Shown here: in pieces, positions 41,746-51,173 of the stretch | Layout of the letters: the number at the start of each line of letters is the position of its first letter | How positions within the stretch are numbered: position 1 is the stretch's first letter | Assembly: GCA_025362235.1 (NCBI GenBank) | Contig: JANYGZ010000095.1 | Span: 733 to 64,732 of the forward strand | Direction of reading: 5' to 3' | Length of the DNA stretch: 64,000 nt | Origin: Ferruginibacter sp. | Lineage (GTDB): Bacteria > Bacteroidota > Bacteroidia > Chitinophagales > Chitinophagaceae | Notes under the pieces: generated by a model | Seen by the model: the letters and a program-made list of their open reading frames with translations, nothing else | Databases searched by the model: none | What the model was told of the DNA's origin: nothing | Program-made: the position numbers and the translations under genes

Positions 41746-42270
41746 TTATTTATCAAACTTATCAAACTCGTTTGTAAAACCCAGGTACTTTACATTCTTT
41801 ACACTTTCCATTACAATATCGTCCTGGTACTCTTTATAAGCTTCTAATTTGCCAGCAATAGAAGTATCATGCAATGCTAGTATTTGTGCAGCGAGGATAC
41901 CTGCATTCTTTGCACCGTTTAACGCAACAGTTGCTACCGGTACGCCATAGGGCATTTGTAAAGTAGATAAAATAGAATCCCACCCATCAAGCGAATTAGA
42001 TGATTTTACGGGTACTCCAATAACAGGTAAAATGGTTTGCGCTGCCACCATGCCCGCTAAATGGGCTGCACCACCAGCTCCTGCAATGATTACTTTTAAT
42101 CCTCTTGCCTTAGCCTTGCTTGCATACTCCCGTAAACGCTCTGGCGTACGATGCGCAGATACAATGGTTAATTCAGGCTCTACATCAAACTGGCGAAGCA
42201 TTTCAGCAGCACCTTTCATAATTTCAAGATCGCTTTCGCTACCCATTATAATGCCAACAAGAGGATTCAT
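41746..42270 (-). CDS. purE: N5-CAIR mutase
   Basis: [36 protein letters not shown]. Confidence 0.98.
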
Positions 42271-48240: not shown

Positions 48241-49806
48241 TTAAGAAAGCATAGGACTTGCAACAACTTTTACCGTATGCTTTATCCGGTTTGCCTGGTG
48301 TATCAATTCCTGTTTTTCTTTACTTAGAATGGTAATATGACCCATCTTCCTACCAGGCCTTGTTTCTTTTTTGCCATAAATATGGACAAAAACATTTTCA
48401 ATTTGTAAAATTTCATTCAGGCCTTCGTACTGCACAGTACCGGAAAATCCATCGGCGCCCACTAAATTCACGATTGCTGCAGGCAATATATGTTCAGTAC
48501 TCCCCAATGGATAACCCAGCATAATTCTCCATAACATATCAAACTGCGAAGAGAAATTTGCTTCAATAGTATGATGCCCGCTGTTATGTACCCTTGGAGC
48601 AGTTTCATTTACAAAAACATTATCCTCCATATCTACAAAAAGTTCAACTGCAAAAATACCTGCACTGTTTAAATACTTTACCACTTTCATTGCAATGGCT
48701 TCCACTTTCCACAAAACTTTTTCGGGCAAATCAGCAGGGCTTATCTGGTATTCCAATAAATTTAATCTTTTATCAAACAGCATATCTACAGCAGGGTATA
48801 CAGCAGTTTCTCCTTTATCATTTACAGCCACAATCACTGAAATTTCTTTTTTAATTTTCACCATTTTTTCCAATACAGAAGGTGCATCAAATCCCTTTTC
48901 AAGATCTTCTTTTGTTTTAAGGATTTCAACGCCTCTTCCATCATAACCTCCCAGGCCTAATTTGTGTACTGCAGGCAAAAAATTTCCCTGTTTTTTTAGT
49001 GCAGCTAAATTCTCTGTTATAATAAAATCACTGGTCGGTATTTCATGATTTTTATAAAATTGCTTTTGTAAAATTTTATTTTTTATAATTTTTAAAGCCG
49101 CAGGATTTGGATAGATTTTTACTCCTTCATTTTGAAGCTTTTCAAGGGCATCAGTATTTACACTTTCTATTTCAATAGTTAGCGTATCAAGGCCTTTCCC
49201 AAAATTATATACGTCATCAAAATTGGCAATATCACCCTTAATAAAATGATTGCACAAATGTGCTGAAGGGCATTCGCTGTCATTTTCCATAACAAAAGTT
49301 TCCACGGGGTAATTGGCCCCTGCTTGTAATAACATCCTTCCAAGTTGCCCCCCGCCTAATATTCCTGCTTTTGGCTGCCCTGAGCGGAGTCGAAGGGGGG
49401 TATTTGTTGGTTGAGCGGAGTCGGGACCTTTTTCCAAGTTATAGTATTTATGGTGTGATAAATTATTGCATTGCGAAAGTAACCGAAGCTTATGAAAATT
49501 GCCCTGTATTAATGCTTCTTTCTTTGATCTGGACCAACCTTTAATTTGTACTTCTCTTTCTGTAGCATCTTTTAAAAACGGAATTGTTTCGTAATATTTT
49601 AATACCAGTGGCCTTCTTTTAAAAGTATAACATGTTTCATAAACACCATTTACATGTTCTTCAAATCTTCTTATCAGGTCATCCGTAAGACCGGTATAAA
49701 AGCTACCATCGTTGCATAAAATTATATACAAATAATAGGCTTCCTGACGGGTGTTATAAAGCATGGTGCAAAATAATTCTTTATTACCACTTTTAAACTC
49801 ACCCAT
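48241..49806 (-). CDS. purK: GIY-YIG nuclease::PurK (N5-CAIR synthetase) in-frame fusion
   Basis: GIY-YIG motifs YLYI..YTG..RR..H..E at 49737-49540; PurK from KAGILGGGQLGRM at 49371, 376 aa, NETAPRVHNSGH, RPGRKMGH; no stop or ATG between domains; start (49806, 49764 or TTG 49848) uncertain. Confidence 0.85.
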   Translation of the reverse strand: MGEFKSGNKELFCTMLYNTRQEAYYLYIILCNDGSFYTGLTDDLIRRFEEHVNGVYETCYTFKRRPLVLKYYETIPFLKDATEREVQIKGWSRSKKEALIQGNFHKLRLLSQCNNLSHHKYYNLEKGPDSAQPTNTPLRLRSGQPKAGILGGGQLGRMLLQAGANYPVETFVMENDSECPSAHLCNHFIKGDIANFDDVYNFGKGLDTLTIEIESVNTDALEKLQNEGVKIYPNPAALKIIKNKILQKQFYKNHEIPTSDFIITENLAALKKQGNFLPAVHKLGLGGYDGRGVEILKTKEDLEKGFDAPSVLEKMVKIKKEISVIVAVNDKGETAVYPAVDMLFDKRLNLLEYQISPADLPEKVLWKVEAIAMKVVKYLNSAGIFAVELFVDMEDNVFVNETAPRVHNSGHHTIEANFSSQFDMLWRIMLGYPLGSTEHILPAAIVNLVGADGFSGTVQYEGLNEILQIENVFVHIYGKKETRPGRKMGHITILSKEKQELIHQANRIKHTVKVVASPMLS

Positions 49807-49874
49807 TTTTCGACTCCTGCATCCTTCGGCTACGCTCAGGATTGGCAAAAATATCCTTCGACTTCGCTCAGGAC
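49378..49874. mobile_element. GIY-YIG cassette flanked by inverted hairpin repeats
   Basis: Left copies CCCTGAGCGGAGTCGAAGGG (49378-49397), GGTTGAGCGGAGTCGGGACC (49409-49428); right inverted copies ATCCTTCGGCTACGCTCAGGAT (49821-49842), ATCCTTCGACTTCGCTCAGGAC (49853-49874); partial TTTCGACTCC (49808-49817). Confidence 0.7.
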
Positions 49875-50039
49875 TATTTACCTTCGTTATAAGATATGCT
49901 TCCCGATTATCCTCATAAAAGATTTTTTGACAAGCGCAATTGCTATACTTTGCTTTTGCTTGCCCTTGCTATGGGTTCGTGATATTGTTGAATGATTTTT
50001 GATAAACAATAATACAATTACGAATTTAATAATTACAAA

Positions 50040-51173
50040 ATGGCAACTTTCACAAGTCAACCCAATGCATTAATTAATACCCCAAACGATTTCCTTCCTT
50101 TACTAGGCACTGATTATGTAGAATTTTATGTAGGTAATGCAAAACAAGCTGCACATTTTTATAAAACAGCTTTTGGATTTCAATCGCTGGCTTATGCCGG
50201 TCCTGAAACTGGTATGAAAGATAAAGTGAGTTATGTTATCAGGCAGAATAAATTAACTTTTGTACTAACAACCCCATTACGTAGTGATAACCCTATTGCA
50301 GATCATATTTACAGGCATGGTGATGGCGTAAAATTTTTAGCTTTAAAAGTTATTGACGCTACTGCCGCATGGAAAGAAACAACAGAACGTGGCGGTAAGA
50401 GCTATATGGAACCAACCATATTAAATGATAATAACGGTAAAGTAGTAATAAGCGGCATACATACTTACGGAGAAACCGTGCATTTGTTTATAGAAAAAGA
50501 AAATTACAATGGACTGTTTATGCCTGGCTTTATACAGTGGAAATCAGATTACAATCCTTCACCAACTGGCTTGTTATATGTAGATCATTGCGTGGGTAAT
50601 GTGGGTTGGAACCAGATGAACACATGGGTAAAATTTTATGAAGAAGTTATGGGGTTTAAAAATATCCTCACATTCGATGATAAAGACATATCTACAGAAT
50701 ATTCTGCCCTGATGAGTAAGGTAATGAGTAATGGAAATGGATTTGTAAAATTTCCTATTAACGAGCCGGCAGAAGGAAAAAAGAAAAGCCAGGTAGAAGA
50801 ATACCTTGATTTTTATAATGGAGAGGGGGTGCAACATGTTGCCATAGCTACAGCAGATATTGTAAAAACAGTTAAAGATTTAAAAAGCCGCGGAATTGAA
50901 TTTTTAAAAATCCCTTATAGTTATTACGAAAATATATTGGATAGGGTGGGTAAAATAGACGAAGACCTTGAACCATTAAGTGAATTGGGAATATTGATAG
51001 ATAGAGACGAAGAAGGATACCTGTTACAGATATTCAGTAAACCTTTACAAGACAGGCCCACATTGTTTTTTGAAATTATTCAACGGAAAGGAGCAAAGAG
51101 TTTTGGTAAAGGAAATTTTAAAGCCTTATTTGAAGCTTTAGAAAAGGAACAAGCGGCAAGAGGGAATTTATAA
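50040..51173 (+). CDS. hppD: 4-hydroxyphenylpyruvate dioxygenase
   Basis: DHCVGN, EGVQHVA, FFEIIQRKG..FGKGNFKALFE. Confidence 0.98.
   Translation: MATFTSQPNALINTPNDFLPLLGTDYVEFYVGNAKQAAHFYKTAFGFQSLAYAGPETGMKDKVSYVIRQNKLTFVLTTPLRSDNPIADHIYRHGDGVKFLALKVIDATAAWKETTERGGKSYMEPTILNDNNGKVVISGIHTYGETVHLFIEKENYNGLFMPGFIQWKSDYNPSPTGLLYVDHCVGNVGWNQMNTWVKFYEEVMGFKNILTFDDKDISTEYSALMSKVMSNGNGFVKFPINEPAEGKKKSQVEEYLDFYNGEGVQHVAIATADIVKTVKDLKSRGIEFLKIPYSYYENILDRVGKIDEDLEPLSELGILIDRDEEGYLLQIFSKPLQDRPTLFFEIIQRKGAKSFGKGNFKALFEALEKEQAARGNL

Follow-up and report, generated by a model that had tools for sequence, protein, structure and literature searches.

Organization of the purK locus

In the genome of Ferruginibacter sp. 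(GenBank assembly GCA_025362235.1), the purK gene, which encodes N5-carboxyaminoimidazole ribonucleotide synthetase, is read in one frame with a small gene for a GIY-YIG nuclease. The locus was analysed within a stretch of 64,000 nucleotides of contig JANYGZ010000095.1 (positions 733 to 64,732), which is called the window here and to which coordinates refer, and was compared with 150 congeners, genomes being designated by handles of which G000 is the window genome. A single open reading frame (ORF) runs on the minus strand from 49848 to the stop codon at 48241, comprising 535 codons when counted from a TTG in the ORF list of the window, with no stop codon between its nuclease and PurK parts. 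The fused protein consists of nuclease, linker and PurK, and has 507 or 521 residues depending on whether the ATG at 49764 or that at 49806 is chosen as the start. Against Pfam the 535-residue ORF matches GIY-YIG (PF01541) at residues 38-110, followed by preATP-grasp, ATP-grasp and PurK_C. The PurK part (48241-49371, minus strand), which by profile and Pfam matches extends from K-A-G-I-L-G-G-G-Q to the stop codon, scores 353.7 bits against the PurK equivalog NF004679 of NCBIfam (cut-off 326) and 328 bits against TIGR01161, both matches beginning at residue 160 of the 535-residue ORF. With a full-length match above the curated cut-off and an intact N-terminal GGGQLG motif, which is invariant in the 37 fusions compared, this part is a genuine PurK, and its gene is the only purK of the 4.33-Mb assembly.

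The nuclease gene, of roughly 105 residues, occupies 49444-49764 on the minus strand and includes a C-terminal helix (MLYNTRQEAYYLYIILCNDGSFYTG…NLSHHKY); the PF01541 match lies at 49737-49519 (E = 6e-14), and the nearest solved structures of the domain are the UPF0213 proteins 1YWL and 1ZG2 (E about 1e-12). Of 37 diverse fusions, 32-37 retain the residues expected in an active site of the GIY-YIG type, Y13, Y23, G25, R33, H37, E59 and N89 (numbered from the M at 49764). An AlphaFold2 model of the fusion has two confident domains (pLDDT 85-91 for the nuclease, PurK likewise confident) joined by a low-confidence linker (residues about 90-128, with pLDDT <50 for 101-128). In the ORF translation and in this model the linker corresponds to about 24 codons without an ATG (49372-49443, minus strand), mostly encoded by two inverted hairpin repeats (…YYNLEKGPDSAQPTNTPLRLRSGQP).

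Several codons could serve as the start. The ATG at 49764-49762 (M-L-Y-N-T) is the one conserved in all carriers of the fusion, and immediately 5' of it, at 49765-49776 on the minus strand, stand TTATTTTG and CACC, a -7-box-like motif spaced as in the leaderless purK promoters of relatives; the same type of arrangement is found in G120, G154, G051, G062 and G096, and the motif is a putative promoter. An upstream in-frame ATG (49804-49806, minus strand; MGEFKSGNKELFCT-MLYNT…) is an alternative start giving 521 residues, and is not conserved, being lost in the proximal copy of G095 (…aaaaaaggtaag…). The fused ORF contains no ATG from the end of the nuclease to the nucleotide-binding motif GGGQLG, so PurK in carriers would depend on an upstream start or on an in-frame TTG at 49435-49437 (minus strand; the L of N-L-E-K), conserved in carriers and a candidate internal start of a PurK with a short extension. 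This TTG is kept in most of the carriers shown (G095, G120, G143, G148, G154, G115; ATC in G043) and also in alleles with a decayed nuclease (G013, G024, G051, G140, G162), and the equivalent codon (N/D-L-E-K) is an ATG in protein P0117 (MEKGLDSARP…) and the called TTG start of P0118.

Hairpin repeats around the nuclease gene

Four hairpin units surround the nuclease gene, two in sense orientation upstream and two inverted downstream. The upstream units, on the minus strand, are H1 (49853-49873; TCCT-GAGCGAAGTCGA-AGGA-T) and H2 (49821-49842; ATCCT-GAGCGTAGCCGA-AGGAT), and the downstream ones, on the plus strand, H3' (49409-49428; GGTT-GAGCGGAGTCGG-GACC) and H4' (49378-49397; CCCT-GAGCGGAGTCGA-AGGG). 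All four were assigned from repeat families, H2 and H4' also from stem covariation. The pattern CCTGAGCGNAGYCGAAGG occurs three times at the locus and nowhere else in the window, with 0 occurrences expected. The units share a conserved 12-nt core, GAGCG-N-AG-Y-CG-R, between covarying stems of 4-6 bp: a stem of at least 4 bp is present in 39 of 48 units from 11 carriers, and the stem sequences are of 11 or more distinct kinds (among them TCCT/AGGA, CCCT/AGGG, GGTC/GACC, TACT/AGTA, TGCT/AGCA, TTTC/GAAA, TTTT/AAAA, CACT/AGTG, TACC/GGTA and CTCT/AGAG). Across 40 distinct units 90% of the cells are paired, as against 31-50% when the partners are slid, and changes on both sides that preserve pairing affect 70 cells, against 20 ± 5 in shuffles, none of 500 shuffles reaching the observed value. 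Conservation of the hairpin DNA extends into the coding linker, a stretch whose length and reading frame differ between species, the same downstream hairpin DNA being translated as LRLRSGQ in some and as STTLR in others.

Two solo hairpins lie outside the window with no nuclease gene nearby, at G000:C63:22294-22311 (TCCT-GAGCGGAGCCGA-AGGA) and G000:C90:5487-5504 (TTCT-GAGCGGAGTCGA-AGAA), the former being intergenic and ahead of a terminator-like stem. These two aside, searches of the whole genome by DNA, by protein and by repeat pattern gave no other copy of the nuclease and its hairpins, which together are called the cassette below.

The allele series at the purK start

The start of purK is found in several states among the congeners. 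Alleles lacking the cassette (empty alleles), which lie in the same neighbourhood with a 28-codon ORF and hppD upstream, read TATATTTG-CTAC-ATG AAA AAA GCA GGA ATA in G105, G142, G118, G045, G071, G089, G056, G159, G151 and G161, the general form being TATATTTG-nnnn-ATG AAA AAA GCA (MKKAG). The first five of these genomes read …TATATTTGnnnnATGAAAAAAGCAGG, keeping the ATG and two codons that are absent from carriers. The sigma-A box of Bacteroidetes, TAnnTTTG, spans -12 to -5 (PMC9723704); with a box so placed, transcription would begin at the A of the ATG, and purK of the empty alleles is therefore predicted to be leaderless.

In the window the -7 box of this ancestral promoter is retained as TATTTTTG (49846-49853, minus strand), stranded between H1 and H2, with variants (ATTTTTTTGCCAG and similar) in G115, G043 and G120, and the sequence resumes the purK coding region at AAA GCA GGA (49371 onward), so that the ATG and about two codons have been replaced. 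An in-silico junction of the carrier flanks, which leaves out everything from the start of H2 to the end of H4', gives a collinear alignment with the empty alleles: H1 is matched with a degenerate stretch resembling a hairpin (TCCTGAGCTACTTCAAGA in G071), TATTTTTG with TATATTTG, and AAAGCAGGAATA with its counterpart in the empty alleles. Judged from this alignment, the cassette proper, from H2, its first unit downstream of the old promoter box, to H4', took the place of the ATG and about two purK codons.

Between the empty alleles and the fusion of the window stand further states. In G062 the two genes are unfused: the nuclease ORF continues across both downstream hairpins to end …LQLRSGQIQL-TGA, the TGA overlapping an intact purK ATG (ATGA; ttATGAaaaaaatagga). 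The proteins P0073 and P0108 are fused and retain M-K-K or M-Q-K-K in frame. Most carriers lack the purK ATG and have one of at least two junction types, LRLRSGQ-x-[KR]-x-GILGGGQ (G000, G095, G143, G148, G115) or STTLR-x-GILGGGQ (G120, G043, G051, G013). One open frame from nuclease to PurK is present in G095, G120, G143, G043, G154 and G115, compensating indels holding the whole frame open across species. In yet other alleles the nuclease is decayed and its tail is still in frame with purK, through frameshifts (G013), a stop codon (G051), loss of the N-terminus (G115) or deletion of most of the gene (G024, G140, G162); decayed in-frame forms are also represented by P0107-P0120 and by many database proteins of 396-484 residues.

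The conserved frame bears on a possible removal of the insert at the RNA level. Group I introns commonly carry GIY-YIG endonucleases, and sequences at the ends of the insert can pair, as might be expected of a self-splicing intron carrying a homing endonuclease, whose mature purK mRNA would have a restored ATG. Such an intron is hardly credible here: a frame held open by compensating indels is not something that splicing would require, only about 60-110 nt of non-ORF sequence are available per side, which is too little for an intron core, and an Rfam scan at E <= 1 returned only a snoRNA hit far below threshold and no intron or riboswitch.

A simple insertion of 495 bp from inverted repeat to inverted repeat, with H1 and H4' as termini, was considered and dropped because of the position of the old -7 box between H1 and H2 and the presence in G120 of the older hairpin-like relic alongside H1. 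Three further variants of the region were seen. About 130 bp upstream of the nuclease start, G095 (L038), the closest relative, has a tandem duplication of the segment comprising H1, the -7 box, H2 and the start of the ORF. In G148 (L043) the fused frame breaks about 40 codons into purK (…VMENDPSCPAATSAIILQKAI*), by pseudogene formation or assembly error. The purK of G006 (L014) has neither ATG nor cassette; an open stretch of 43 codons (…HQVTKDQHSTPETSNLPRIGILGGGQ) precedes GGGQLG, with an in-frame GTG as the likeliest start, and represents another remodelled N-terminus.

The GCAG repeats and the possibility of excision

The original prediction, made from the sequence of the window, had read this locus as an insertion into codons 1-2 of purK, with GCAG as a 4-bp target duplication, and had proposed that precise excision restoring ATG CAG CCA… could act as a switch; in this model a transposon-like element would turn purK on and off. 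The letters are as it described. On the minus strand, AT (49822-49821) and GCAG (49820-49817) are followed by a second GCAG at 49378-49375, and deleting 49379-49820 (442 bp) gives ATG CAG CCA AAA GCA GGA ATA TTA GGC, an open start read MQPKAGILGGGQ, with the TATTTTTG box (49853-49846) ending 24 nt before the restored ATG; at present this ATG opens only a 7-codon frame (MQESKNG*; 49799-49822, minus strand), out of frame with the fusion. The 9-bp pairing it had noticed is real, GGAGTCGAA at 49817-49809 being perfectly complementary to 49386-49394, the insert is flanked by inverted repeats, and the site is truly the purK start.

These features find another explanation in the repeats themselves. 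The 9-bp pairing is that of a half copy of the hairpin core (49809-49817, minus strand) facing an inverted full core, and at the half-core site tandem partial cores vary in number among species (G095, G115, G120, G154). Both copies of GCAG abut or overlap hairpin stems: the 5-bp stem of H2 (ATCCT/AGGAT) begins with the AT at 49842-49841 and ends with that at 49822-49821, and the stem of H4' has G49378 of the right-hand GCAG as its last base. The GCAG letters belong to repeat units and not to a target. As AT stands on both sides of H2, a deletion of 462 bp (49379-49840) yields the same ATG CAG CCA…, 3 nt after the -7 box, which is the geometry present in relatives. Of the carriers shown, only G000 and its 95-98% relative G095 have the left-hand ATGCAG, and with it the GCAG pair; the left junctions of the rest are different. 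Among 336 breakpoint pairs giving an in-frame ATG, the GCAG junction is the only one with a 4-nt microhomology; such a match is nonetheless within chance, the probability that one of the few upstream ATGs meets an in-frame 4-mer of this kind in the first ~15 purK-proximal codons being 0.1-0.2 by our own rough estimate.

The alleles of relatives do not fit an excision either. Comparison of purK 5' ends, expected to begin MQPKAG or similar, gave MKKAG, MIKAG or MTKAG, one residue shorter, and the empty alleles keep about 40 bp that are absent from the carrier. Since carriers are without the ATG and about two codons, and since the ~40-48 bp between the small ORF and purK codon 3 are variably retained, no deletion in the window recreates the empty allele. 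The insert is moreover old, under selection and in frame with purK, which can be expressed as a fusion as it stands and has no need of a switch; the insert is present in a single copy in the genome and is therefore no multicopy transposon, and Pfam detects in it only the GIY-YIG domain, no recombinase or transposase. An exact search of a metagenome contig collection for the excision junction ATGCAGCCAAAAGCAGGAATA gave no purK match, its single hit being a coincidence in an unrelated DEAD-box helicase (LLEKMQPKAGIQ). An excision switch is thus very improbable, and for that idea the outcome is mostly negative. The original prediction was partly confirmed as an observation and was right about the place, foreign DNA occupying the purK start with the ATG and about two codons replaced; it was wrong about the mechanism, neither the 4-bp target duplication nor the switch being supported.

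Distribution, age and selection

A search with the first 200 residues of the fusion retrieved more than 100 clusters at 90% identity that combine PF01541 with PurK domains in 490-535 residues, and which are named 5-(carboxyamino)imidazole ribonucleotide synthetase from Ferruginibacter sp. or Chitinophagaceae. The fusion accounts for hundreds of PurK entries that are about 130 residues too long. A literature search found no description of a GIY-YIG/purK fusion or of a Bacteroidetes GIY-YIG mobile element.

Between carriers, the ratio of non-synonymous to synonymous substitution (dN/dS) is 0.05-0.10 for the nuclease part and 0.04-0.09 for PurK, values which point to purifying selection on the nuclease as strong as that on PurK. 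The synonymous distance (dS) exceeds 1 in every carrier pair except the near-identical G000-G095; with silent sites saturated, the fusion must be old.

Selection of this strength over dS > 1 is also what would be expected if the nuclease had been domesticated, the GIY-YIG domain and its hairpins serving the host in the control of DNA uptake or recombination, as SsnA and the NTS repeats do in Neisseria, or in a DNA transaction coupled to purine supply. The covariation that conserves the hairpins agrees with such a role, and SsnA modulates transformation (PMC11893778). The nuclease is, however, dispensable, given that it has decayed repeatedly with purK intact (G013, G051, G115, G024 and many shorter proteins) and that many congeners have no cassette, and only a handful of genomic hairpins are available as substrates, which makes a host function improbable.

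Gain and loss of the cassette

In the PurK tree carriers and empty alleles are interleaved. G000 groups with the empty G105, its sister, and G142 (support 99/87 and 99/98), and G043, a carrier, with the empty G118 (95/91). The purK genes of G043 and G118 are separated by a dS of 0.50, against a dS of about 1.1 between the cassette and purK of G043 and those of the carrier G143, which has the nearest other cassette; the change of state in this pair thus came after the cassette lineages had long diverged. Because the empty alleles keep the ancestral promoter, the ATG and the two codons that fused carriers have lost, excision would not produce such flips; they need homologous recombination that brings in an entire allele, whichever way the change goes. 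Sliding flank identity in carrier/empty pairs, aimed at conversion tracts, gave no clear pattern, and the left flank of G043 was too short.

The purK start has been captured at least twice, since genomes of the G096 type carry at the same codon a second GIY-YIG, only 44% identical and with different flanks, fused to PurK at …E-V-K-K-A-G-I-L. In G096 itself (L048; 349-1869, minus strand; proteins P0100-P0106) the fusion reads …KKEVKKAGILGGGQ, a long palindrome stands upstream instead of the GAGCG hairpins, and the neighbour gene is a different one, encoding a LuxR-type response regulator. A GIY-YIG gene of the same hairpin type as that of the window (GGTT-GAGCGGAGCCGA-AACC) was seen in G058 (L064; 1399-2277) and G003 (L066), in frame with a protein weakly matching DprA (DNA_processg_A, E = 8e-4, below the cut-off). 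The other GIY-YIG paralogues of the genus, which are 45-50% identical and stand alone, do not have the same core, the G058/G003 type excepted, so the ends of the element are not definable from paralogous copies.

These patterns recall the usual cycle of gain, decay and loss of homing endonuclease genes, and the cassette might be a selfish element of the homing type, still active at the purK start. The nuclease would act at or near the promoter-region hairpin of empty alleles, the cassette would be copied in by recombinational repair, and the in-frame fusion would be an adaptation by which expression of purK continues. Close lineages do have intact, decayed and empty alleles at the same site, with a flip of state within the purK dS of 0.5 noted above; empty alleles bear the degenerate hairpin TCCTGAGCTACTTCAAGA at the position of H1; the residues of the nuclease are conserved; some nuclease halves are far closer than the PurK halves joined to them (0.047 vs 0.166 for P0073/P0080); and the second GIY-YIG has reached the same codon. 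Against this, the two halves co-diverge overall (r = 0.63) with similar dN, as for mostly vertical descent, flank identity has no sharp conversion tract, no DNA-binding domain of the kind found in homing GIY-YIG enzymes was detected with Pfam, cleavage is a prediction, and the patchy distribution is explained just as well by losses in which empty alleles were imported. Active homing is accordingly a tentative alternative, rather unlikely as it stands. Its most specific form, in which a hairpin-specific nuclease dedicated to the purK start attacks the leaderless promoter of empty alleles, destroys the start codon and survives by donating its own leaderless start in frame, is somewhat less likely still. 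If the homing reading were true, the recurrent capture of the same codon by the G096-type lineage would be part of the same phenomenon, and the locus would present a homing element of a bacterial chromosome that lives as a parasite on a housekeeping gene, having turned into the N-terminus of its product.

Proposed origin of the fusion

Taken together, the segment 49873-49378 (minus strand) is very likely an old GIY-YIG nuclease cassette of the Ssn/UPF0213 kind, bracketed by its own hairpins and fused to purK. In an ancestor within Ferruginibacter, as the genus is named in public records, the cassette settled between the leaderless purK promoter, with its -7 box, and purK, an early state still to be seen in the unfused G062. 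Small indels then merged the frames of nuclease and purK, with loss of the purK ATG, and the frame into purK is retained even in alleles with a decayed nuclease. In the window genome the single open frame comprises the nuclease, a disordered, hairpin-encoded linker of about 25-40 residues and PurK. Translation would proceed from the ATG at 49764 (or 49806) to give a fusion of 57 kDa, on an mRNA that is probably leaderless or has a short leader and which would be transcribed from the -7-like box of the cassette, the stranded purK box, or both; additional initiation at the TTG at 49437 may occur. By analogy with SsnA, the nuclease may still bind or cut its own hairpins as single-stranded DNA, and presence and absence would flip between lineages by homologous exchange of whole alleles rather than by excision.

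A number of points weigh against the cassette so described. When both strands of the hairpin regions were folded as DNA with nearest-neighbour energies, they did no better than shuffles (z -0.9 to +1.6), and with the folding energies unremarkable it is the covariation alone that argues for the hairpins. The repeats are not dispersed, only 8 core matches being present in the 4.33-Mb genome, 4 of them at the locus, and a regular-expression scan with the published SRM pattern HGTCWYN(0-2)YYVSBRHN(0-5)WNVSBRGN(0-2)RNCYNB found nothing at the locus and, in the genome, a single unrelated match. Placing the ancestral breakpoints to the exact base is not possible; with H1 on the upstream side of the retained promoter box, the history may include more than one event. 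Over 98 fusions the nuclease-half and PurK-half distances correlate only moderately, at the r given above, with some pairs strongly discordant, so that inheritance has not been purely vertical; the distances fit mostly vertical descent with occasional exchange. Start codon, promoter, full-length fusion protein and nuclease activity are all predictions from the DNA.

Comparison with known systems

The closest known kind of element is that of the Ssn nuclease/hairpin-repeat systems, of which the locus in the window is a fused variant. Hairpin-flanked small GIY-YIG nucleases of this kind, with NTS/SRM hairpin repeats, were first described in 2025 for SsnA of Neisseria meningitidis (Chenal et al., Nat Commun 2025, PMC11893778); the authors likened the repeat-gene-repeat architecture to an insertion sequence, and mobility is still a hypothesis. 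In both cases a small GIY-YIG gene is flanked 5' and 3' by oriented hairpin repeats, whose conserved non-palindromic part gives them their orientation. An Ssn nuclease is a single-domain, stand-alone protein of ~100 residues, whereas here the nuclease is the N-terminal domain of a PurK fusion of 507-535 residues, G062 being unfused; the hairpins consist of a short stem and the 12-nt GAGCGNAGYCGR core, outside the published SRM pattern; and in place of many dispersed copies there are 8 in 4.3 Mb, two of them within coding sequence. The comparison draws on the layout of gene and repeats, the nearest solved structures here being UPF0213 proteins, and cleavage of single-stranded DNA is predicted by analogy.

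With GIY-YIG homing endonuclease genes, such as those of the phage T4 Seg proteins and I-TevI, the cassette shares the form of a nuclease-only selfish gene at one defined site in or next to a conserved gene, and a cycle of gain, decay and loss that leaves intact, degenerate and empty alleles among close relatives; it differs in having no separate DNA-binding domain detected, in being bracketed by hairpins and in being fused to the host gene rather than intergenic or intronic. The REP/BIME elements with RAYT (TnpA-REP) and the IS200/IS605 family likewise place a single nuclease-type gene between inverted short hairpins, presumably recognised as single-stranded DNA, and make no target-site duplication, but their enzyme is of the HUH/Y1 and not the GIY-YIG type, and the cassette has only a small number of repeats and forms a fusion with a housekeeping gene. 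Inteins with homing endonucleases also insert selfish nuclease DNA in frame with an essential host gene whose protein is still made; here, in contrast, there are no splicing domains, and the additional domain remains part of the protein unless an internal start bypasses it.

The locus thus offers, at one site in one genus, a natural series of unfused, fused, in-frame decayed and absent cassettes. It indicates that a housekeeping gene can lose its promoter-adjacent start codon to a cassette and yet stay expressed by translational fusion, and that hairpins can be kept as DNA structures even within coding sequence. The series makes testable the activity of the nuclease on the hairpins, the conversion of empty alleles and the identity of the start codon that feeds PurK.

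Neighbouring genes

The purE gene lies on the same contig and strand as the fused purK, 6 kb downstream of it (window 41794-42258, minus strand; 211 bits against TIGR01162), and the two are non-adjacent, genes for an RND efflux pump and a TolC-like protein standing in between. On the other side, divergent from purK, the 28-codon ORF (MLPDYPHKRFFDKRNCYTLLLLALAMGS) is found at 49896-49982 (plus strand), a short way ahead of hppD (50040-51173); Pfam gives no match for it, and most congeners retain its start (…GGATAATC.GG….CAT when read on the strand of purK).

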